Of a stretch of DNA of 64,000 nt, positions 2,352 through 53,692 are shown one piece after another. Made by a program: the position numbers and the translations under genes. This DNA comes from a virus, in IMG/VR virus record IMGVR_UViG_3300019850_000189, positions 32,001-96,000 of that record, one strand, 5' to 3'. The notes beneath the pieces were generated by a model, which saw only the letters and a list, made by a program, of their open reading frames with translations, ran no database searches and was not told the DNA's origin. Numbering within the stretch: position 1 is the first letter of the stretch; each line of letters starts with the position of its first letter.

Positions 2352-2681
2352 ATGAATTTAAAAAAAATTATATCAGAAGTTGATTTTACAGATCCATTTG
2401 CCGGAAATATAGATCGAAACAAAAAAATGGATAGAGAGGGCCTAATTAGAGCAATTAGAATGGATATCGCCGCCGAACACGATGCGGTCGCTCTATATAC
2501 GGCACACGCTCTCGCGACAGATAATGAAACAGCTAAATTAATTTTGTTGGATATAGCAAATGAAGAGCGTGTTCATGCTGGTGAGTTTATGAAGCTTCTG
2601 GATATTTTGACGGATGGCCAAGAGAGCGAACTGCTTTCAAAGGGAGAGCAGGAAGTAAGAAATAAAACTACTGAGGAATAA
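2352..2681 (+). CDS. Ferritin-like protein (encapsulated-ferritin / rubrerythrin-like family)
   Basis: LIRAIRMDIAAEHDAVALY and LLDIANEERVHAGEF carry the di-iron ligand pattern (E...Y; EExxH) of short ferritin-like proteins. Confidence 0.85.
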   Translation: MNLKKIISEVDFTDPFAGNIDRNKKMDREGLIRAIRMDIAAEHDAVALYTAHALATDNETAKLILLDIANEERVHAGEFMKLLDILTDGQESELLSKGEQEVRNKTTEE

Positions 2682-2682
2682 C

Positions 2683-3090
2683 ATGGAATTATTACGTCTT
2701 TTATCACAGTTAGAAGAACAAATTGCTGGCACGAGTGCGATGGGCGGCCCAGCCAAGAAAACAGAGTTCATGCCTCTGACCAACATTTCAGATTCTATTA
2801 AAAGGCACAAAAAGAAAAAGAAGAAGATATCACATTATATATCACTAAAGCAATCTGATGTTGTGTTGGGCGACGCAGAACGTAAAAACGAAGGCATATC
2901 AGTCGGCCGAGATAAATTCGCTAATGTCAGAAGTAAAGGCAATGAGGAATACACACCCGGAACAAAATCTAAAGCGAAAAATAAACCAAATGAAATAAGT
3001 GGTAGAGAAAGAAAAAAAACAAAAAGAACTAAACTCAATTATTCTGATTTTGATTTCGGAACAGTTGGAATGTTTAACAAATATGTTTAA
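2683..3090 (+). CDS. Basic, Lys-rich hypothetical protein
   Basis: Coupled ORF; HKKKKKK tract; MELLRLLSQLEE leader. Confidence 0.65.
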   Translation: MELLRLLSQLEEQIAGTSAMGGPAKKTEFMPLTNISDSIKRHKKKKKKISHYISLKQSDVVLGDAERKNEGISVGRDKFANVRSKGNEEYTPGTKSKAKNKPNEISGRERKKTKRTKLNYSDFDFGTVGMFNKYV

Positions 3091-3099
3091 GAGAGATAT

Positions 3100-4176
3100 A
3101 TGGCAAATCCATATAATAGACCAGACGATGAGCTCCTTGATAGTTTTCATCGTGAGAACCCAGATTTTGATTTAATGAATGCCGTCAATGATGAATTGCA
3201 TAATATATCTGCGGCGCCATGTCGGGTTTATAAGTTGGATGTATCACAGAGTAAAGAAGATCCAGATAATATATATCCAGAGTTGATATATAGGACCTAT
3301 CTGCCTCCTATTGTGGTTAAAATGTATTATGTTGAGCCAACATGGACAGAGGAGTTAAATCGGCTGGGCATTAATATGCCAGAGGAAATAGTGCTTTCTA
3401 CTAACCTGCAAAGATTGATTGAAAGTATGAGATACGCAAAAACAGTCTCTTCAAAGGCAAGTGCTTCAATCAATATCAGTTATACATTTAATGAACAATC
3501 AGGTTATCCTTTCTCCACTTATGAGGATCCGGCAAATGAATTGACTGCTGTAAATATTTATCATGATGGTAATGGCAGACTTTATTCTAAACTGGTTTTT
3601 TCAGATGGCAATGAAATATGTGATCCAAATTTCGAACTGAATTATGAGGATAAGTGTGGTATTATAGATCTGGCCCATCCTGCGGTATCGACGGTAGAAA
3701 AGCTGGTGGATTTTGTAGACGGCCTCCCAAATTATTCAGCAGATCTCGAATCCGGCTCATTGGATATTCTATCTTCTAAGATGATTCCTTTCGCAAATTG
3801 GATAAATATAAAAGATTACATATACCAGGTGCCGGTAGACCGAACAGGTGGCGTCTATGATAATGTAGCTGATGTTCTGGAGCCTGGAGACATAATTGAA
3901 ACTGTAAGAAGACACGAAGCCACACGGCAAGGGACCGAACCCATTCACGGGTTGGATGGATCACCCACTTTGGACCCGGTTACTTTAGCACCTGTAAGAG
4001 GTAAAATATACGAAGTAAGATATTCTTTCGTAAGCAATGAAACACCCAGCTGGCATTATATTAATTTTAATATCACGGCAGACAAAATACCAATGGATAG
4101 CTATGATCAGGTCTTGAAGGGCTTGCCGGCAGATGAGGTTTGGACTCCTGGGCCAGGTGGTAGATGGTATGCTTAA
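3100..4176 (+). CDS. Neck / head-completion protein, T4 gp14-like, with inserted domain
   Basis: N-part (DNIYPE...LNRLGINMPEEIVLS) and C-part (LEPGDIIE...KIYEV) resemble gp14; located upstream of gp15-like and sheath genes. Confidence 0.65.
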   Translation: MANPYNRPDDELLDSFHRENPDFDLMNAVNDELHNISAAPCRVYKLDVSQSKEDPDNIYPELIYRTYLPPIVVKMYYVEPTWTEELNRLGINMPEEIVLSTNLQRLIESMRYAKTVSSKASASINISYTFNEQSGYPFSTYEDPANELTAVNIYHDGNGRLYSKLVFSDGNEICDPNFELNYEDKCGIIDLAHPAVSTVEKLVDFVDGLPNYSADLESGSLDILSSKMIPFANWINIKDYIYQVPVDRTGGVYDNVADVLEPGDIIETVRRHEATRQGTEPIHGLDGSPTLDPVTLAPVRGKIYEVRYSFVSNETPSWHYINFNITADKIPMDSYDQVLKGLPADEVWTPGPGGRWYA

Positions 4177-4393
4177 CAAATATGAGATATACATGCGTGA
4201 TTATGGGCCTGGCGCAACAGGGCATGTTTATGAGATAAATATATATAGGGCGAAACCCAAAAAGCTTTTGTTTTCATATCGTTCGCGGTTCGCGCCTCAT
4301 CACTCAGAAAAAAGAACGCGCTCGATTACACGCATGGTATATAGAATTATAGATTTAAGAATAAAAAGGCATATTTTGAATCACTTATTGTAA
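4169..4393 (+). CDS. Hypothetical protein
   Basis: ATG 4169 overlaps the stop of the previous gene. Confidence 0.5.
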   Translation: MLNKYEIYMRDYGPGATGHVYEINIYRAKPKKLLFSYRSRFAPHHSEKRTRSITRMVYRIIDLRIKRHILNHLL

Positions 4394-4405
4394 TAGGAGT
4401 TTGAT

Positions 4406-4699
4406 ATGGCTAGTTTGAGAGAGTTATTGAACGATATTTTAGTTGAAGGTTGGGCAGGAGCTCGTGGCGTTCCTGATGGATCAGGTCCGGGGCCCGGTAT
4501 GACAGCTAAAGGCCGGCAACAGGGTATGGCAAATGGAATCAATAAAGATGCCGTCCACTCAGCGGCCGCCAGGGCAGCAAAAACAATTTTTGGCAAGGTT
4601 AATGAAAAAGAACTCAAGAAGACTGTAGCTGCTGCTATTAAGAAAGCCAAAGACACAAAACAGGCTATTCAAATAGCTACCGACATGATGAGGGGTTAA
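4406..4699 (+). CDS. Hypothetical protein
   Basis: AGGAG SD; MASLRELLNDILVE leader; Gly-rich core. Confidence 0.7.
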   Translation: MASLRELLNDILVEGWAGARGVPDGSGPGPGMTAKGRQQGMANGINKDAVHSAAARAAKTIFGKVNEKELKKTVAAAIKKAKDTKQAIQIATDMMRG

Positions 4700-4700
4700 G

Positions 4701-5000
4701 ATGAAACTTTTGGAATTATTAAAACAAGAATTACACACGCCTACAATTCCAATAGTAGATCTGAAAAATCTCAACAATAATATCGATGATTATCTTAAAT
4801 ACGCAGATGATCTTTCGGATAAGCAGCGGGAAACTTTTATTCGCACCATGGTTAGAACAATGCAGTCTATTTCCAGAAAACTTTCGGCCAATAATAAGTA
4901 TGAGGGCTTCGTAAGGAGAATGTTTGATAAAGATAATTTAGACGATAATTTGAAGAAATTAAAATCATATAATAATAAGCTCATAAAGGAAAAACAATAA
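4701..5000 (+). CDS. Hypothetical protein
   Basis: Coupled ORF; MKLLELLKQE leader. Confidence 0.65.
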   Translation: MKLLELLKQELHTPTIPIVDLKNLNNNIDDYLKYADDLSDKQRETFIRTMVRTMQSISRKLSANNKYEGFVRRMFDKDNLDDNLKKLKSYNNKLIKEKQ

Positions 5001-5019
5001 ATACAATGAGAGGGTAGGC

Positions 5020-5340
5020 ATGAGAACCATTAAACAGAGGCTCATAGAACAAGATCTTAAGCAGGGGAAAACTATCATCAATAAAGGCAATAATGATAAG
5101 TATGTAGAAGCAATATTTTACGTCTCTCAAAAAGGCGGAAGTGGTTACGATAAAAAGGCCTTAATCAGTCAAGAGAGTGCCTTAGCTAAAGAATATAAAT
5201 TTAGAATAGATAAAGACAAGCTTGGTAATGTTATTGATCATATCCGTAGTCTGCCTGGAGTTACCATGCAAACTAAGAATCAATCAGAAATGGGGCAAGG
5301 CACAGGAAAAGAAACACATAGTTTTCCGGAAATTAAATAA
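5020..5340 (+). CDS. Hypothetical protein
   Basis: GAGGG SD; MRTIKQRLIE leader. Confidence 0.65.
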   Translation: MRTIKQRLIEQDLKQGKTIINKGNNDKYVEAIFYVSQKGGSGYDKKALISQESALAKEYKFRIDKDKLGNVIDHIRSLPGVTMQTKNQSEMGQGTGKETHSFPEIK

Positions 5341-5630
5341 TGGCAAAGTCAGAATTAAAGTTCAATGAATTAATTAAAAAGGTTGAGAATGATATAGAGC
5401 AGATCAAAGCTGCAATTGTCCAAAGAGCCTCTGACGAAATTAAATCAACGTTTCAGGAAAGCAATGTTAATATCGAGCCGGCACCTTCTGGAGCTAACAT
5501 ATCAGTCAATAATGAAGATCATGAGTTTTTAAAAAAAGAATTCGGAGCGGATAAATACAAGCCGGCCAATAAGTCGATCAGGATCAAAAGAGGAATAGGA
5601 AAGAAAATAAAGAGGTGGATGGGGCAATAA
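5340..5630 (+). CDS. Hypothetical protein
   Basis: TAATG stop/start coupling. Confidence 0.65.
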   Translation: MAKSELKFNELIKKVENDIEQIKAAIVQRASDEIKSTFQESNVNIEPAPSGANISVNNEDHEFLKKEFGADKYKPANKSIRIKRGIGKKIKRWMGQ

Positions 5631-5631
5631 A

Positions 5632-6738
5632 TTGTCAGTGCCAACATATTTTTTATTTAAGAGATACAGTGTTGAGGTAAAGAGGTGGTTACAATCCATT
5701 TTTCACATTCCAAGATTGGACAGTACCAACGCAAGTGTAAAAGTTGTTTATGCCACCCCAGAAAGGGCCATAGCGAAGTATGTAGTTCCTATCCGAAATC
5801 AAATGACAGACATTCCGGTAGTCGGTTTATACCTGGCTAATATGTCTTATCAACTTGAAAAAAATACCGCTATTGAAAACTATGAGGTAATTAAAGACAA
5901 AGATAATAACATAGCAAAACGCATGAAACCGTTCCAAGTTTATAGTTTAACGTATGTAATTAATATTTGGACAAAGCTTCAAATGGATATGGATGTCATG
6001 CTTTATTCTCTATTGAGCCAGCTGACTCCATTCCGATACCTGGCCGTAGACTCAAATATCGACTACAAGGAATATGATAATTTGGATAGATTTTATCCAA
6101 TGGAGAATGGCCCGCAACAGGGCAAAAATATAGATGCGAACACGAATGAGTTTGAGAAAAAACATGGTCAATGGTTCCCATTGACTTTGGATTCAGTAAA
6201 TGATGCCTCTAACCTCGAACCCGGTGAAGCAGGTGAAAGGGTAATTAGAACAGACATCAATTTGCTCTGTGATAGAGCTTATTTACCAATTGGCGGATTC
6301 GAATATAAATCAATTCGGGAATTGGAAATAAATAGTGTTTTAGATTGGAATACTGAGGAAGGCATCAGTATATATGCTCTTTCAGATGCTGATTATAATT
6401 ATTTAATGGCTCATGATGAGAACTGGCATTCTCCTGTTCCGACATATGGAGACTTGCCGATGACAGGCAATAGCATCGGCGATATACGTAGAGTAATTTC
6501 TGAGAATGGCTTATACGATGATGGTGAACCCTATGTTTGGGGAGTAGAAGATATATCATTCTATAAACCAGCGGTTGATACCCTGGGAGATCTACCACTG
6601 ACTGGCAGTATAGACGGCGATATTAGATATGTTAATAATAAATCAGAACACTATCGATGGAATGGATTTACAAGCAAATGGCAATTATATAATAGATGGA
6701 TCAAATATAGAATCTATTTGAGAGATATCGTAACATAG
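5632..6738 (+). CDS. Tail terminator / sheath-stabiliser, T4 gp15-like, with C-terminal repeat extension
   Basis: VVYATPERA, IPVVGL and YSLTYVINIWTKLQMDMDVMLYSLL motifs; lies just upstream of the sheath. Confidence 0.7.
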   Translation: MSVPTYFLFKRYSVEVKRWLQSIFHIPRLDSTNASVKVVYATPERAIAKYVVPIRNQMTDIPVVGLYLANMSYQLEKNTAIENYEVIKDKDNNIAKRMKPFQVYSLTYVINIWTKLQMDMDVMLYSLLSQLTPFRYLAVDSNIDYKEYDNLDRFYPMENGPQQGKNIDANTNEFEKKHGQWFPLTLDSVNDASNLEPGEAGERVIRTDINLLCDRAYLPIGGFEYKSIRELEINSVLDWNTEEGISIYALSDADYNYLMAHDENWHSPVPTYGDLPMTGNSIGDIRRVISENGLYDDGEPYVWGVEDISFYKPAVDTLGDLPLTGSIDGDIRYVNNKSEHYRWNGFTSKWQLYNRWIKYRIYLRDIVT

Positions 6739-6748
6739 GAGCCACAAT

Positions 6749-6934
6749 ATGATTTTCAAGATTAAAAATAAAACTTATCAGCCTTTGATGCTAATCATTG
6801 AAGATAAATATGTAACACTTCCAGCGAGGAAGACGATTAAAGTACACCATATCACAAAACAAATGAGAAATTTGGAAATTAAAGGATTTTTACAAATTAT
6901 AAGAATTCAAGAGGAAATAGACCAATTTCTCTAA
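6749..6934 (+). CDS. Small hypothetical protein preceding the sheath
   Basis: AGGAG SD; 61 aa. Confidence 0.6.
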   Translation: MIFKIKNKTYQPLMLIIEDKYVTLPARKTIKVHHITKQMRNLEIKGFLQIIRIQEEIDQFL

Positions 6935-12955: not shown

Positions 12956-13202
12956 TGAGGACACTAACTCGGACACCTACAAGTCTCTTCTGCAAATGCA
13001 GTTTATGCTGGCATATCACGGCGGTATAGATGTCTGGTTTACGCAGAACATGACTATTGAAGATAGAAATTATTTTGCCGAACTCCTCATCGATGAGAAG
13101 AAAAGAGAAGAAAAATCATATAAAAAATCTGAGCGAGAAGGCCAGATGCAAAGTAGATCCACGCCCCACAGACCTTACATAAATCCTCGTATAAAGATAT
13201 GA
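12945..13202 (+). CDS. Baseplate hub assembly catalyst (T4 gp51-like)
   Basis: QFMLAYHGG...NMTIEDRNYFAELL pattern; directly follows the gp26-like gene. Confidence 0.65.
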   Translation: MSNDEDTNSDTYKSLLQMQFMLAYHGGIDVWFTQNMTIEDRNYFAELLIDEKKREEKSYKKSEREGQMQSRSTPHRPYINPRIKI

Positions 13203-13216
13203 TAAATAGCTAAACT

Positions 13217-13240
13217 AAAGGCCGGTAAATACCGGCCTTT
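13217..13240. terminator. Hairpin terminator
   Basis: aaaggccggt-aaat-accggccttt. Confidence 0.75.
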
Positions 13241-13315
13241 CTTGCTTTTATTAAATGTATTTGTTCTCCGAAAACATATATAGATATAAAACAATAGCAT
13301 GACGAAGGCAATTTT

Positions 13316-14335
13316 GTGAAAATATTATTATTCAGCGATCTACATGTATACAGACATATGGGTATGGATTTGTTTGTCAAAACGGCCGGCAAATTTCTAT
13401 CCTATGTCGAACAATACGCAATCAAACACAAAATAAATCATATCTACTTTCTTGGAGATATGTTCCAAATTAAGACTAAAGTTGATTCAATGGATTTTAT
13501 TTTTATACGGAACATAATTCGTTCATGGAAGAATAAATTCAAATTGTATTTTTTAATTGGCAATCATGATATGCCACTACCCGATAGCACAGATGGTTCA
13601 ATAATGCACGCTTTCGATGAGTATGGCCGCGTTGTGAAGGATTACGAATATTTTGATTTAAGCGATGATCTTAGGTTTCATTTTATGTCATATATTAAAA
13701 ATGACAATGGTAAGCTGCCGAATTTTAAAATTGGAAATGGTAAAAATGTCCTGTTCATGCATCAGGATGTGACTGGCTTTCGAATGAATAATTCCCATGT
13801 GGCCGGCCTGGGTTTCGATATTACTAAATTCAAACAGATGAATAAAGTTTTTTCAGGTCATTATCATTTACACCAACAAAAACTTAATATTGTATTCATT
13901 GGATCTCCATTTCAAACAAATTTCGGAGAACGCGATACAAATAAAGGCTTTGTTGTACTTGATACGAATACGTTGAATTGGACTTTTCATGAATTTAGGG
14001 GTGCTCCAAGATTCAAGTATGTAGATTATACCCAGATCAATCGTGTTAATGTTAATAATTGTTTTGTCAAGGTCATTATCCCATCAGAAATAAAGAATAC
14101 TGAGCCTATTATAGAAAAAATGAGGTCAAAAGGCGCTATTTCTGTCGATATCAGCACTACAACAGAAGAACTTATTAAAGAGTTGGAGTTTGTAGAAGAG
14201 CTTAATAAATCGACTATCAAGAAATTAGCTATGCAGTTTTTGGATAACATAGATATTTCAAATGATCTTAGCAAAAAGGAATTAGTCAGCATATTAGATA
14301 AAATAAATGACGAATACCTCGCACAAAGAGCGTAA
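13316..14335 (+). CDS. SbcD/Mre11-like recombination nuclease (gp47-like)
   Basis: FSDLH, LGDMF, IGNHD, MHQD and FSGHYH metallophosphoesterase motifs. Confidence 0.92.
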   Translation: MKILLFSDLHVYRHMGMDLFVKTAGKFLSYVEQYAIKHKINHIYFLGDMFQIKTKVDSMDFIFIRNIIRSWKNKFKLYFLIGNHDMPLPDSTDGSIMHAFDEYGRVVKDYEYFDLSDDLRFHFMSYIKNDNGKLPNFKIGNGKNVLFMHQDVTGFRMNNSHVAGLGFDITKFKQMNKVFSGHYHLHQQKLNIVFIGSPFQTNFGERDTNKGFVVLDTNTLNWTFHEFRGAPRFKYVDYTQINRVNVNNCFVKVIIPSEIKNTEPIIEKMRSKGAISVDISTTTEELIKELEFVEELNKSTIKKLAMQFLDNIDISNDLSKKELVSILDKINDEYLAQRA

Positions 14336-20275: not shown

Positions 20276-22030
20276 CTAATATTTTTTCATCTTTCTATCA
20301 ATTTTATCTATTATATTGTCAATACTCAACTCTTCCATTATAACATCTTCTTTAATGGCTGTGTAGTTATTGCTAATTCGTCCCTCTTTGATTGTTAGCG
20401 CCTCCTGGTTCCATGAATATTGATTGTTGAATGTGAACCATGTGTCCAGATAGCATCCAGCATATCCACCATTTTTAGCCAGTGGCTTTTTTTCTATAGG
20501 TATTTTGGGATCTGGAAAAAAACACCAGTCCAAAATAACCCATTCCAAACTTCTCTGCGAATCAGCACGATCTGCCAGATAAATAGAATAACCATGTCCT
20601 CCCATTTCTGCTTTTGGACCTGGTTTTACATATCCAGCCACCACCTTGGCGCGCCATGGCGGAATGCCTGCGTTAATGAGCAAGCTTGTAATTAAAATAC
20701 CGCCGTCTTCGCAATTTTTTACAATGCTTCCGTTTTTGGTAATGAAATTATGCGTCTCTTGCACTTCAAAATCCCTCATTTCTACTTCTTCTAAATCTTC
20801 GATATAAGAGATGGAGACTTCACTTATCCCTTCATATCCATAATCTTTCTGAAAATGTGAATTTGAATTATAAATAACTCTATATATTGGAGCAGTTCCA
20901 AATCCAGTATGTTCAGATTGGCAATAGACATATAAAGGTTTTCCTAATTGCAAATGAATCCTTTGAAGATCACTCACCAATTGTTCCGAGACAGTTGAAT
21001 AAAATAATCGAGAGTTGTTGTTATATCCTCTTTTGTCTGGATAATCAGTTATGTGGCCATCTCCCAAGTGATAGCCATTCAGAAAACTTTGTAGCTTATT
21101 TTCTGGGAGGTGGAAAAACTCTTCTGGAATATGGATATCAAAACTATTAGTTTTAAATTGTTTTAAGTAATCCTTAAACTGACTTTTCAAAAAAGTCAAT
21201 ATAGGCAAACCATTATGTTCATGTTCTGAAAATAAAATATTATTTTTTTCTAAGAGTGGAATTATTTCTTCAGTTATAGCATAGCCACTAGTAGCTATGT
21301 GCCCATGAGAATGCCACCCCTCTGCAATGTAATGCCCTATTACAAAACATAAGTCCTCATTTAACCATTCAATGTCTCGTATTTTATAAGGAATTTTTTT
21401 GGTCATTGGCATTTTTTTGGTCCACCATTTGCTAAGATCTAAATCTTTCACTCTAGTTTCTTTGTATATACTTTTTTTCTGGGATTGCCGTATAAGAAGT
21501 TTATGTTCGTCTGATACATCTATCCATTGCCCATTTCGCAGATGAACCCTTTTTAACGGCAGGAGACCTTTCTCCCATATTTTGCTAATATATTTATAAC
21601 AATATTTCTTTTTTTCAAAATCATAGGACAAAACATTGTCACCGACTTTCAGATCGCCAACTTTTTTTATACCATCTTCTGTGTATATTTCTTCATAATT
21701 AGCAATACAATCTCCAGTGCTAGCGGAAATTGTTTCAAATGGAAATTGCCAGAACTCGGGAATTTTTGCAGTATCATCGTCATATTTATATGTAAGAAAT
21801 TGGCATACGAATTTTTGCACCGCCCACGCTGTCTCATTGTGTGTTCTTTTCTTTAAGTTATATTTTTTGATTACCTCATGAAGTATGGCGTCATTGGCGG
21901 AAATAAAATCTTTCACATCAACTCCTATTTGCTTTTTTTGCCATCTAAGCGCCCGGCCTCCATAAATTATAGGAGCTCTTGGCCATTTGTTGTTCCAATA
22001 GTTTTCGCCATAATTACCATAATCTGGCAT
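20276..22030 (-). CDS. Transglutaminase-like cysteine-protease-family protein interrupted by an intein
   Basis: Spliced extein reads WQFPFET...TGD/CEDGGILITSLL...GHGY...ILDW (Cys-His-Asp triad pattern). Confidence 0.75.
   Translation of the reverse strand: MPDYGNYGENYWNNKWPRAPIIYGGRALRWQKKQIGVDVKDFISANDAILHEVIKKYNLKKRTHNETAWAVQKFVCQFLTYKYDDDTAKIPEFWQFPFETISASTGDCIANYEEIYTEDGIKKVGDLKVGDNVLSYDFEKKKYCYKYISKIWEKGLLPLKRVHLRNGQWIDVSDEHKLLIRQSQKKSIYKETRVKDLDLSKWWTKKMPMTKKIPYKIRDIEWLNEDLCFVIGHYIAEGWHSHGHIATSGYAITEEIIPLLEKNNILFSEHEHNGLPILTFLKSQFKDYLKQFKTNSFDIHIPEEFFHLPENKLQSFLNGYHLGDGHITDYPDKRGYNNNSRLFYSTVSEQLVSDLQRIHLQLGKPLYVYCQSEHTGFGTAPIYRVIYNSNSHFQKDYGYEGISEVSISYIEDLEEVEMRDFEVQETHNFITKNGSIVKNCEDGGILITSLLINAGIPPWRAKVVAGYVKPGPKAEMGGHGYSIYLADRADSQRSLEWVILDWCFFPDPKIPIEKKPLAKNGGYAGCYLDTWFTFNNQYSWNQEALTIKEGRISNNYTAIKEDVIMEELSIDNIIDKIDRKMKKY
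20714..21709 (-). mobile_element. Intein with LAGLIDADG endonuclease (332 aa)
   Basis: Starts CIANYEEIYT; block B SDEHKLL; LAGLIDADG-like GHYIAEGW and GYHLGDGH; ends MRDFEVQETHNFITKNGSIVKN followed by +1 Cys. Confidence 0.9.
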
Positions 22031-24144: not shown

Positions 24145-24419
24145 GTTTCAAACCAATGTCACTTATGCCTGGCGATAAAGTTGTTAATAGGGTGTCAATT
24201 ACTGGAGATCGTGGCAGTACAATACCTCCGAACACAGAACTGGTTGTGATAGCCACGAATGGTGATGATTGTGTGATGACACATTCAATTCTTCCAGAAA
24301 ATAAATGGCCAGGAGCTGAGTTATTTGTGGAAGATACCAGGAAATTGAAGCTCGTCGAAGAAGTTAAAAATATAGAAGTTGTTGATTTGGGAGGTAAATA
24401 TGAAGCTGGCAGCCGCTGA
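24141..24419 (+). CDS. Hypothetical protein
   Basis: ATGA overlap. Confidence 0.65.
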   Translation: MSFKPMSLMPGDKVVNRVSITGDRGSTIPPNTELVVIATNGDDCVMTHSILPENKWPGAELFVEDTRKLKLVEEVKNIEVVDLGGKYEAGSR

Positions 24420-24882
24420 AATAATTGAAAATGTGTTATCCAAGTCTCTTACCCACAAACAGATTGTTGCTCATTTGAATAATAATATGCCGCAAAAAAT
24501 GATTGAATTTTGTAAAGAAAAAAATGGCATAGGCTTGGCCGCGCCTCAAATTGCTCTTTTCCAAAGTTTTTTTGTGGCAAAAATATCTAATGAATGGCAA
24601 GTTTTCTTTAATCCTGCCATACTTCATAAATCTGATGAATTGATATCAATAAACGAAGGCTGCTTGAGCTATCCAGGCTTGCTTGTTAAAACGCAAAGGT
24701 CAAAAGAAATCATTGTTCAGTTCTTTACCATTAATAAAATGTTATCAACTAAATTGTCAGGTTTGGACGCTATCGTTTTTCAGCATGAGTATGATCATCT
24801 TCAGGGTATTACAATTTCAACACTGTTTAAGGATGGAAAGGCCAAAAAATCATCAAGTGTTAAAAATAAGATTGCCATGTAG
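24400..24882 (+). CDS. def: Peptide deformylase
   Basis: GIGLAAPQ, EGCLS and HEYDHLQG motifs; GGAGG SD. Confidence 0.95.
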   Translation: MKLAAAEIIENVLSKSLTHKQIVAHLNNNMPQKMIEFCKEKNGIGLAAPQIALFQSFFVAKISNEWQVFFNPAILHKSDELISINEGCLSYPGLLVKTQRSKEIIVQFFTINKMLSTKLSGLDAIVFQHEYDHLQGITISTLFKDGKAKKSSSVKNKIAM

Positions 24883-25549: not shown

Positions 25550-26338
25550 ATGGACACACTCACAAAAGAATTGATCAATAGTTTCAAAAAAGATTATCCT
25601 TACAATCCATTGGTGGTATTCGGTGAAGATGAGAAATATGGCAAAATTCCAGGCTGGATATCATCTTCAAGTTACAGTTTGAATTGGCTCGCTAGCAAAT
25701 CTCTCCGTAGAGGATTGCCTACCGGCCGGACCGCCGTTATTGTTGGGGATCCCTCGACAGGCAAAACCGCGATTGCCATATCCTGTATGAGAGATCCGAG
25801 CATAGATCTTATTGTTTATTTAGATAGTGAAGGCGGCGGTGCTGATGCCAGTTTTGCCGAATTTTTAGGTGCAGATCCGAAAAAGATATTATATTCTCCA
25901 GTTGATACTATGGATGAGCTTAAATCAAAAATGAGTAAAGTTATAGACACAATCGAGAAAAATCAATCCACTAAAAAGGTATTGGTTGTTATAGATTCAA
26001 TGTCCATGATAAGCACTGAAAAAGAAATGAACCCGGAGAAAGGCTGTTACGTTGAGGGTACCATAGTTCCCACTACTGATGGCTCAAAACCAATAGAAGC
26101 TATTACTATTGGGAATAAAGTAATCACACATCTGGGCGAGTGGAAAGAGGTAGAAAAAGTATGGGAATATACTGATAAAGACGACCTCATAGAAATCACC
26201 ATGGAGAATGATATTACTATCAAATTAACTCCTAATCATCGGCTACTAGTTCAACGAGATGGTTCATTGCAATGGATCGCCGCTGAAGATTTGAAGGTAA
26301 CTGATTTGTTGCAACAATTGGATAACAAAAAGCATTAA
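25550..26338 (+). CDS. uvsX: UvsX/RecA recombinase N-terminal extein fused to split-intein N-fragment
   Basis: Walker A GDPSTGKT, YLDSEGG, Walker B VVIDS, then CYVEGT intein start; TAA after 97 intein residues. Confidence 0.9.
   Translation: MDTLTKELINSFKKDYPYNPLVVFGEDEKYGKIPGWISSSSYSLNWLASKSLRRGLPTGRTAVIVGDPSTGKTAIAISCMRDPSIDLIVYLDSEGGGADASFAEFLGADPKKILYSPVDTMDELKSKMSKVIDTIEKNQSTKKVLVVIDSMSMISTEKEMNPEKGCYVEGTIVPTTDGSKPIEAITIGNKVITHLGEWKEVEKVWEYTDKDDLIEITMENDITIKLTPNHRLLVQRDGSLQWIAAEDLKVTDLLQQLDNKKH
26045..26335 (+). mobile_element. Split intein, N-terminal fragment (97 aa)
   Basis: Block A CYVEGTIVPTTDGSKPIEAI, block B IKLTPNHRLL, WIAAEDL; no endonuclease; ends at a stop codon. Confidence 0.88.
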
Positions 26339-26424
26339 GGCGGGATAGTGTGTCATTATCATATGGGAGAAGGATTATACAGAAAGCCCAAAAAAGATTG
26401 TACGACAACTTTTAAGGAGTATAA

Positions 26425-26580
26425 ATGATGATTAATTATGAAGATGTTTTTGTAGAGTCAATGTACCGGCCGGTAAGAATAAAGTCCATCAAGAAAATTT
26501 CGAATAAGCAAAAAGTGTATGATTTATCGGTAAAAGATCATAAATCGTATTGCACAAATAATGGCATCATAGGCCATAAT
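26425..26580 (+). mobile_element. Split intein, C-terminal fragment (52 aa)
   Basis: VRIKSIKKISNKQKVYDLSVKDHKSYCTNNGIIGHN followed by +1 Ser (blocks F and G). Confidence 0.88.
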
Positions 26581-27384
26581 TCAGATATGGGCGCAAAAGC
26601 TAAACAGGTTCGTGAATATTTCAGGATTTATTCTCGCAAAATTCAGAAAATGAACATGTGTCTTCTCATGACCGCTCACTATACTCAAAGGCTGGATCCG
26701 TATGGTCCTCCAAAGGTTGTTGGTGGCGGCACAATTATGGCGTTTGCGCCAAGTCTTACTATTGAATTGAGCCACAATACGAAGGAAAGCGATATTGAAA
26801 AATCAGCCAAGGGTGCCAGCATTGTCGGCCTGAGAGCCAAAATCATAAAGTCGCGACTGGGCACATATGGCAAACAGATGGAGTTCGAGTTTAATATGAA
26901 TCAAGGCCTTGATCCATATTCAGGATTATTCAACATACTCAAAGATTATGGCATTATTATCCCTGCCGCGAAGGATCTGGAGGCACAAATAAAAGAAAAG
27001 AATATCCCTAAAAAGTCAACCGGCGCATGGATATTTAACGCCTGGGAATATCCGGAAATATTTGAAAACTTCAAAAAGCATATTCGCGCATCTGGCAAAT
27101 TCAGGGAAAAGGAATTCAATGGTTTTTGTGCAAAAAATAATGACTGGATTATAGATCTTATTCAATCATCATTGGATAAAGCCACACATATAGATGCGAT
27201 AAAGATGAAACCGGTCCAGGCCGCAGATGACGAAGCTCATGAAGAGACGGAGCCTGCCGTACAAACGGAATCAGATAAACCCAAAACCAAGAAAAAGACC
27301 GAAAAGGCGTCAAAAGACAAGAGCGCGGTAGAACTTCTTGCGGGCACATTGGCACCCAAGTCTGAGAAGAGCCAGAAGAAATAA
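26425..27384 (+). CDS. uvsX: Split-intein C-fragment fused to UvsX/RecA C-terminal extein
   Basis: Own TAAGGAG SD; after HN the protein continues SDMGAKAK...TAHY...VVGGG...FAPSLTIEL...KSRLG as RecA/UvsX. Confidence 0.9.
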   Translation: MMINYEDVFVESMYRPVRIKSIKKISNKQKVYDLSVKDHKSYCTNNGIIGHNSDMGAKAKQVREYFRIYSRKIQKMNMCLLMTAHYTQRLDPYGPPKVVGGGTIMAFAPSLTIELSHNTKESDIEKSAKGASIVGLRAKIIKSRLGTYGKQMEFEFNMNQGLDPYSGLFNILKDYGIIIPAAKDLEAQIKEKNIPKKSTGAWIFNAWEYPEIFENFKKHIRASGKFREKEFNGFCAKNNDWIIDLIQSSLDKATHIDAIKMKPVQAADDEAHEETEPAVQTESDKPKTKKKTEKASKDKSAVELLAGTLAPKSEKSQKK

Positions 27385-52644: not shown

Positions 52645-53106
52645 GTGAAAAAGATCACATTATTTCTAGTAGCATTGTTGTTTATTTTGGCAGTTGGAGT
52701 TGTGGCATTTGCAGACATGAAGCCTGCTGACATCGTTGGTAATTGGCTGATTATGCAGGAGTCAAGTGCGGATCAGGATGGCCTTACGCTCTACGAGAAA
52801 GGCTCTGATAGTTATGTCATCTTTAAGTTCAAAGATGATATAATTTGTGCTCCTGCTTTCAATAAAAATGGTGTCAATCATGTTGCCACTTATGATTCTG
52901 GTGAGTATGTAACTGTTAGTAAAGTTAGCATATTTACTGATTCATATGGTAAAAAATGGTATCACTTCTATGACAATTGGTATAACATAGATGTTATGTT
53001 AAAGTTTCATAACAAAGATATCGTTTATGGTTATGCGATCAATGATGACTGGACATTGAAAATAGTGCTCAAGAGATCAGGCACATTCGACTTGAAAAGT
53101 GAATAA
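52645..53106 (+). CDS. Secreted hypothetical protein
   Basis: AGGGGG SD; signal peptide ending AFA. Confidence 0.7.
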   Translation: MKKITLFLVALLFILAVGVVAFADMKPADIVGNWLIMQESSADQDGLTLYEKGSDSYVIFKFKDDIICAPAFNKNGVNHVATYDSGEYVTVSKVSIFTDSYGKKWYHFYDNWYNIDVMLKFHNKDIVYGYAINDDWTLKIVLKRSGTFDLKSE

Positions 53107-53125
53107 TTAAAATAGCAATGAGTTG

Positions 53126-53155
53126 AAAGCCTCGGATATTCGAGGCTTTTTTTTT
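53126..53155 (+). terminator. Intrinsic terminator
   Basis: aaagcctcg / cgaggcttt plus T-run. Confidence 0.85.
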
Positions 53156-53692
53156 GCCAAAATAATTATGTTATGGAGGATAAAATGCAATTAAAGAAAT
53201 ATGAGCGTCAGACAAGATCTTGGTGAAGAAAGTTTTGATGGCAAGACTGGGAAATATTTATTTGACTTTGTCTATGAATATACTAGATAATGTAAAGATA
53301 ATCCTGTTATGGGACTATACGAACAATCTAGAAATACAAAGCAGTATAAACTATTGATTGATGCTGGTTTTAAGGAAGTTACGCCAGTAGTTACTCGTAA
53401 GCGTGGTTCTTTTACTGGGGGAGCTAAATAAAATTTTTCTGGATGCATATATACAGGTATGTTATGAGTGAGTGAGTGTGGTTAATGTATTTGGGAAAAT
53501 ATATTTGATTAGCAAAAATAAACTTTCTTGGAATTATTGCCAAGATAATTTCACCAAAATAAAGAGTGAGAAATTATTATGAATAGATTATCTTCAAAGC
53601 CGCAACAGTTTAGTATTAATTGGTCACATTCCGCGATAGCCGGAGTACATCCAATTATGCGATTGTAAGGACGAATTACTCTTTTTCTCGGT

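Follow-up and report, generated by a model that had tools for sequence, protein, structure and literature searches.

The recombinase gene uvsX of an uncultured phage has very probably been fractured into two genes by a canonical, naturally split intein, so that the whole enzyme would be made only through protein trans-splicing; the short gap between the genes is the remnant of a homing-endonuclease gene. The locus lies in a stretch of 64,000 nucleotides (hereafter the window), which comprises bases 32001-96000 of a linear, 189,375-bp IMG/VR record (IMGVR_UViG_3300019850_000189) with a CheckV completeness of 79%, a G+C content of 35.7% and a coding pattern that fits translation table 11. A sequence-only reading of this DNA had proposed that the recombinase is split by an intein, and this proposal is now supported by profile matches, the catalytic residues, the junctions of intein-less homologues, a contiguous allele, split alleles in independent metagenomes and a docking prediction. 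The kind of locus is already known, since naturally split inteins, endonuclease-less ones included, have been described in the fractured genes of phages (PMC2677866).

The first open reading frame (ORF1, 25550-26338, + strand) encodes 262 amino acids (aa) and ends with a TAA at 26336-26338. It is followed by a gap of 86 nt (26339-26424) and by a second frame on the same strand (ORF2, 26425-27384), which encodes 319 aa, is preceded by an in-frame TAA (26422-26424) and has a Shine-Dalgarno sequence, TAAGGAG, that can be read from the sequence at 26413-26419 (+). The sequence-only reading had described the same layout, with the 86-nt gap, the TAAGGAG and the in-frame TAA at 26422-26424. ORF1 and ORF2 are in different frames (25550 mod 3 = 2; 26425 mod 3 = 1), and the frame of ORF1, when followed past its TAA, reaches a TGA after 29 codons. 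Because of the different frames and the intervening stops, the two cannot be joined by frameshifting or read-through, and this way of joining them was rejected here as it had been before. The locus thus shows what defines a fractured gene, namely separate ORFs that each comprise an extein part and an intein part and have their own stop and start signals. No match to a promoter or terminator was found in the gap, for which reason ORF1 and ORF2 are probably co-transcribed, and no significant RNA structure was detected there (z -0.42). In the 189-kb record no second RecA-family gene was found, the split locus being the only one recognised. An alternative genetic code was also considered, as the best tblastn matches belong to the TAG-recoding Lak megaphages, and was rejected: recoding any of the stops gave only a generic gain in ORF cover, and both the stop usage (31 TAA, 21 TGA and 12 TAG) and the TAA that ends ORF1 count against recoded stops.

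The two exteins together make up a complete UvsX/RecA protein. The N-extein (25550..26044, +; residues 1-165) contains Walker A (GDPSTGKT) and Walker B and ends with the Gly at the start of loop L1, while the C-extein (26581..27384, +; 267 aa plus stop) begins with the Ser at position +1 (26581-26583) and contains the rest of loop L1, loop L2, whose GGG is readable, and the C-terminal part of UvsX; all the elements of the RecA-fold ATPase core (Walker A, Walker B, L1 and L2) are therefore present. ORF1 matches PF00154 (29.8 bits, cut-off 27), phrog_97 (UvsX-like, 1e-22) and the phage recombinases 7z3m (7e-17) and 9gbg (1.8e-12) of the PDB. ORF2 matches phrog_97 (4.5e-17) and the UvsX structure 9gbg (5e-8), and aligns with E. 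coli RecA from residue 157 on. The junction between the exteins aligns to G160/S162 of E. coli RecA and thereby falls, as had been suggested, within loop L1, which we take to be residues 157-164 in the established RecA numbering. Six intein-less UvsX proteins of 393-449 aa (P0002-P0005, P0009 and P0010) have the same residues across this point as the predicted spliced product, and the alignment with them is continuous over the junction, showing that the exteins are colinear and that nothing is missing or duplicated. Identity to P0002-P0005 amounts to 76-79% for the N-extein and 62-77% for the C-extein. The computed masses are 29 kDa for the ORF1 protein, 36 kDa for the ORF2 protein and 48.1 kDa for the spliced UvsX of 432 aa; those of the two intein pieces are 11 and 6 kDa.

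The N-terminal intein half (IntN, 97 aa, ORF1 aa 166-262; 26045..26338, +) runs up to and includes the TAA, and the C-terminal half (IntC, 52 aa, ORF2 aa 1-52; 26425..26580, +) forms the start of ORF2. ORF1 matches the intein families PF14890 (37.3 bits, cut-off 35.8, profile positions 37-93) and PF13403 (Hint_2; 29.5 bits, cut-off 28.4), and ORF2 matches positions 121-155 of the PF14890 profile (E 4.1e-6). All catalytic residues of a class-1 intein are present: Cys1 of block A (Cys166 of ORF1, 26045-26047), which directly follows the conserved extein Gly, the block B motif Thr227-Pro-Asn-His230 (26228-26239), the block F Asp (D33 of ORF2), the block G His-Asn (H51 and N52, 26575-26580) and the +1 Ser (S53). 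When compared among split alleles that are only 31-58% identical overall, Cys1 and the Thr and His of block B are invariant in five N-halves, and D33, H51, N52 and S53 in eight C-halves. IntN is 55% identical to the N part of P0015, a contiguous allele of 550 aa from contig L012 that contains a mini-intein of 152 aa at the same site, and the window gene is broken between blocks B and F, the canonical split position, where P0015 has a short linker.

These residues bear directly on the question of whether the intein still works. In a splicing-dead relic the halves would no longer be ligated, and the recombinase would either be lost or persist as a two-piece enzyme whose parts stay together non-covalently through the intein halves. 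Such a reading draws on the decay of the endonuclease gene (see below), which indicates that the mobile element has passed its invasive phase, and on the fact that splicing in the window is deduced from the sequence. We consider it quite unlikely, because Cys1, the Thr and His of block B, the block F Asp, His-Asn and Ser+1 are intact in the window and invariant among relatives with an identity of only 44-58%, and because both exteins are full length, free of stops and frameshifts, and 62-79% identical to intact homologues. An unspliced domain of 17 kDa in a DNA-binding loop would, moreover, be hard to square with function. The rate of non-synonymous differences per site (pN) is also far below the synonymous rate (pS) in both intein halves, with pN values of 0.06-0.31 against pS values of 0.60-0.89, and the exteins behave similarly. 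Between the window and L012, pN/pS values are 0.31/0.72 for IntN and 0.25/0.89 for IntC, and between L009 and L013, two contigs with split alleles, 0.14/0.60 and 0.06/0.60, respectively. The intein halves hence evolve under constraint as far as these comparisons go, the ratios being only a bound.

Relatives of the locus were obtained through protein searches and contig look-ups in public metagenomes. The sequence-only reading had called for a search for homologues with contiguous or endonuclease-separated alleles, and both types were found: the former is represented by P0015, the latter by L009, L010 and L013, in which a gene of 324-331 aa lies between the two halves. In L011 the same endonuclease gene abuts the C-half; this contig carries P0014, the closest C-half to that of the window. 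L008 contains a split allele with a gap of 53 nt and no endonuclease gene. Apart from P0015, no longer allele with an in-frame endonuclease domain was found. The intervening genes match phrog_3339, annotated as ‘homing endonuclease’, and gave no match in Pfam and no sequence-profile match in the PDB. The top fold matches of a low-confidence model of one of them (pLDDT 57) include E. coli Vsr (1vsr, 1cw0) and the catalytic domain of I-Bth0305I (3r3p), with E 0.019 for 1vsr, and on this basis we tentatively regard the endonucleases of the relatives as Vsr-like in fold. Among cultured phages, the exteins found only matches of 25-35% identity, none of them with this IntC, and a blastn search in the phage collection returned no close DNA relative of the locus.

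The 86-nt gap is a remnant of the 3′ end of such an endonuclease gene. In the third frame, 28 codons and a TAA (26349..26435, +) match the extreme C-termini of the endonucleases in L011, L009 and L013 in BLASTP (E 4e-8, 2e-6 and 3e-6, respectively). The best score of 33.1 bits compares with a mean of 14.7 (sd 2.2) and a maximum of 21.2 in 200 shuffles searched in all three frames. This fossil aligns end-to-end with only the last 27-28 endonuclease residues, the conserved Gly-Asp-x-Trp-His region of the relatives having been deleted; lacking the catalytic motif, it cannot be an enzyme. The statement of the sequence-only reading that no endonuclease is present between the halves therefore needs to be divided. 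It holds in so far as there is no intact, free-standing gene in the gap, but the gap itself is the 3′ remnant of one. A search of the 189-kb record for an intact copy elsewhere yielded marginal matches only.

The fossil overlaps the start of ORF2 by 8-11 nt, and the same overlap between endonuclease stop and IntC start is seen in L009 and L011. In these two contigs, as in the window, the final codons of the endonuclease gene contain the ribosome-binding site for IntC (in L009, AGGAG occupies the homologous place), and the TAAGGAG of ORF2 falls within the fossil; as read from these alignments, it is the fossil that supplies the ribosome-binding site and the start codon of ORF2. The homology to the starts in L009 and L011 also makes the second ATG (26428) the likelier start, in which case IntC comprises 51 aa. 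The length of 52 aa given previously is correct for the first ATG at 26425, but probably not for the start that is homologous to those of the relatives. Sequence comparison indicates that about 300 endonuclease codons have been deleted, along with a hairpin over the endonuclease ribosome-binding site like the one in L009, and what the deletion spared is 10 nt behind the IntN stop and the segment from which translation of the downstream half is driven. The hairpin in L009 (4826-4864) is a perfect one of 17 bp, located right after the IntN stop, and masks an AAGGAG before the endonuclease gene; no counterpart was found in the window gap. In L008, 18 nt of the 53-nt gap (4817-4876) are identical to an internal segment near the 3′ end of the L009/L010 endonuclease gene, the longest match among 500 shuffles being 15 nt, and a ribosome-binding site is retained ahead of the IntC start. 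This suggests, on sequence grounds, that L008 lost its endonuclease gene by a different, independent deletion.

The composition of the gap also speaks to a second alternative, according to which the split is an assembly or sequencing artefact and the true gene has a contiguous mini-intein like that of P0015, or none at all. The locus is known from a single metagenomic contig, and in viral_contigs we found no exact match to the gap junctions, no close relative of ORF2 and no second, identical assembly of this phage. An indel error cannot, however, yield 86 nt that are homologous to an endonuclease 3′ end at exactly the position where the relatives have it, nor can a slip account for a well-formed ribosome-binding site and start codon. 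The two-gene layout recurs in independent samples, both halves diverge to a matching degree from the same homologues, and the charge complementarity described below is of the split type. An artefact is thus extremely improbable.

Charge complementarity between the halves had been noticed in the sequence-only reading in the form of an acidic patch in IntN and a basic patch in IntC, which on calculation carry charges of -6 and +7, respectively. IntN as a whole has a net charge of -7 and a pI of 4.8, and IntC a net charge of +4 and a pI of 9.4. Across the eight split alleles the charge of the IntC strand ranges from +4 to +7, compared to -5 in the single contiguous allele, and the IntN strand carries -5 or -6 in five of six split alleles, compared to 0 in the contiguous one. 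The charge sign of the strand pair thus seems to have switched on becoming split, as far as the aligned alleles indicate, which fits selection on a two-piece intein for capture of one half by the other through charge, though only one contiguous sequence was compared. Structure prediction for the complex of IntN (ORF1 aa 160-262) and IntC (ORF2 aa 1-60) gave a score of 0.72, against 0.00 for the best of three controls. Of 80 solved complexes 58 attain this mark, as do 2 of 110 mismatched pairs, counts that apply only approximately since our own alignments were used. At least 92% of contacts are shared between the runs, the partner pLDDT is at least 69, and the predicted complex has ORF1 214-217, the acidic strand, paired with ORF2 19-25, the basic one. 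The prediction fits docking of the two halves but shows resemblance to solved split-intein complexes, which the predictor may be reproducing, rather than binding by this particular pair. A single-sequence AlphaFold model of the P0015 intein was too poor (pLDDT 43) and was not used.

Taken together with the allele comparison, the probable history starts with the invasion of the loop L1 site by a mini-intein. A free-standing, probably Vsr-like homing-endonuclease gene then inserted into the intein and broke the gene, and most of this endonuclease gene was later deleted. The last 28 codons were kept, plausibly since the downstream half takes its ribosome-binding site and start codon from them. 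In the phage as it is now, the 29-kDa fusion of N-extein and IntN and the 36-kDa fusion of IntC and C-extein would dock through their acidic and basic strands and fold into one HINT domain, in which Cys1 would form a thioester, Ser+1 would attack it, the terminal Asn would cyclise and an O-to-N shift would leave a normal Gly-Ser peptide bond in the DNA-binding loop L1. The product would be a UvsX of 432 aa and 48.1 kDa with the layout of its intein-less homologues and a native loop L1, and the intein pieces of 11 and 6 kDa would be released. The anatomy, the homology, the allelic series and the fossil are seen in the sequences, while co-transcription, docking, splicing and the reason for keeping the fossil are inferred.

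Several points weigh against this reading. Its basis is one metagenomic assembly, complemented by sequence comparison and prediction. With the record being 79% complete, a second, intact recombinase gene may exist elsewhere in the phage. The PF14890 score of ORF2 (27.1 bits) is under the cut-off of the family, as expected for a match that covers only a 35-position fragment of the profile. The charge comparison has only one contiguous allele to set against the split ones, and synonymous sites are saturated, which makes the pN/pS values only a bound and the test for selection a weak one.

The sequence-only reading had also raised a possible control point and a new orthogonal intein tool. On the first of these views the split would not simply be an innocuous trace left by a selfish element, in that splicing could gate the enzyme according to timing, redox state or stoichiometry and act as an adaptive control point. 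Support comes only by analogy, from the conditional splicing that has been proposed for RadA/RecA inteins (PMC4760082), and the Cys1 nucleophile could in principle make splicing redox-sensitive. Close relatives do well without the intein, however, the allelic series fits the neutral path of a selfish element described by Dassa et al. (PMC2677866), and the gap contains no regulatory signal, which makes such a control point distinctly improbable. A broader claim, that the split state is kept because it is useful, with trans-splicing in loop L1 gating the timing of recombinase activity during infection, or else that the remote intein forms a fast orthogonal pair that differs from all those characterised so far, appears unlikely as well.

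As a fractured gene that has lost its endonuclease gene, the window locus falls within a known framework. Fractured genes with split inteins were described from marine metagenomes by Dassa, London, Stoddard, Schueler-Furman and Pietrokovski in 2009, with gp41, IMPDH, DnaE, NrdA, NrdJ, ligase and terminase as hosts, while UvsX was mentioned only as a neighbouring gene (PMC2677866). In their model the upstream part takes its stop, and the downstream part its start, from the invading element, which can later disappear, as in gp41-7; a Vsr-like endonuclease family, with which the tentative assignment in the relatives agrees, is present in half of their fractured loci, and hairpins occur upstream of the endonuclease genes, gp41-7 also having an upstream hairpin (PMC2677866). 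With its fossil and its lost endonuclease, the window locus corresponds to step III of this model. Like those loci it comprises a phage DNA-metabolism gene in adjacent same-strand ORFs, interrupted by a class-1 intein that is split canonically, has Cys1 and consists of halves with complementary charges. It differs from them in host and site (loop L1 of UvsX/RecA), in keeping a readable coding fossil and in that all allele states of one gene are available. With gp41-7 it shares the secondary loss of the endonuclease gene and the donation of downstream translation signals by the endonuclease 3′ end, although the upstream hairpin of gp41-7 is not found in the window. The 17-bp hairpin of L009 resembles those reported upstream of endonuclease genes by Dassa et al. 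Compared to Vsr-like endonucleases of the I-Bth0305I type, the likeness lies in the window gap, which is homologous to the C-terminal helix of the phrog_3339 endonucleases of the relatives.

Characterised split inteins such as gp41-1 (6qaz/6riz), NrdJ-1, IMPDH-1 and Npu DnaE resemble that of the window in their canonical split site, Cys1, HINT fold and similar N/C size ratio. In sequence, the window intein is remote from characterised inteins, the similarity being marginal: a query with the P0015 intein gives E 0.005 for gp41-1, E 0.003 for the polymerase intein 9hth and E 0.6 for Pho RadA. Its IntC is also longer (51-52 aa) than those of characterised split inteins, due to an extension that is conserved at its N-terminus. 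Atypically split inteins of the VidaL type reportedly occur in uvsX as well (Thiel et al. 2014; Burton et al. 2020), and would have in common with the window that a phage recombinase gene carries a naturally split intein. The split in VidaL follows strand beta2 and leaves an N piece of 16 aa (PMC13014065), whereas the window intein is split canonically into an N piece of 97 aa and an IntC of 52 aa. No report of a split intein in uvsX was found in the literature searched, a search that did not extend to Burton 2020.

How split inteins work is not changed by this locus. It does extend the set of genes broken by canonical split inteins to the main recombinase of phages, here interrupted in DNA-binding loop L1, and it provides an unusually complete gene-breaking series within one gene family, comprising intein-less, contiguous mini-intein, endonuclease-bearing split and endonuclease-less split alleles. 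As the readable fossil shows, the downstream half owes its translation start to the invading endonuclease gene. Comparison of contiguous and split alleles suggests which strand charges change on splitting, which could guide intein engineering, and the intein pair is a candidate for a new trans-splicing reagent.

The intein family to which the window intein belongs is broad, with 956 cluster representatives at E values up to 0.001, and includes at least six 50%-identity clusters of RecA N-parts that end in an IntN. A related IntN also ends the short ORFs of three cluster representatives (P0098, P0175 and P0058), which between them encode DNA polymerase III alpha (its N part), a Toprim domain and a Mu-F-like head protein; these are likely further fractured genes. 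Members of the same family are also found in loop L1 four residues away from the site used in the window and L008, namely in L009 (4001-4816 and 5842-6798; P0007/P0019), P0021 and P0011. The window intein lies after the Gly and before Ser-Asp-Met-Gly, and that of the other group follows Asp-Met-Gly, where the Ser nucleophile replaces the next Ala. Either the intein shifted or it homed to the neighbouring loop L1 site.

In L013, a Logan contig of SRR17165187, uvsX appears from its ORFs to be in three pieces that two different split inteins would join (2148-2633, 2669-3802, 3799-4803, 4869-5843 and 5836-6801). The Walker A loop harbours one intein (Gly-Lys|Cys ... His-Asn|Ser) and loop L1 the other, and each is accompanied by its own free-standing nuclease-like gene, one with a match to an HNH PHROG and the other of the Vsr-like type. 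P0022, P0023, P0025 and P0035 have the Walker A split only. In the Lak-B megaphages uvsX is likewise fractured, and a related split intein occupies loop L2, in front of the conserved Ser-Gly of this second DNA-binding loop. In Prevotella phage Lak-B2 (L001, MK250021.1, an unannotated record read with TAG as Gln; 2402-3376, 3463-4134, 4303-4854 and 4799-5536), two ORFs of 223 and 183 aa with no assigned family lie between the uvsX halves.

A peptide deformylase gene (phrog_2890, 8e-34) is located just upstream of uvsX, at 24379-24882 of the window. Deformylase adjoins uvsX in L008, L009 and L013 as well, and a gene for ribosomal protein S21 lies nearby in L008 and L009. Four further matches to intein profiles were found in the record, at 13000-13668 (-), 24281-24688 (-), 52714-53679 (-; 20714-21679 of the window) and 123202-123528 (+), and these sit inside long ORFs of 859, 963, 585 and 885 aa, respectively. 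With these four matches the phage carries at least five inteins and is thus intein-rich.

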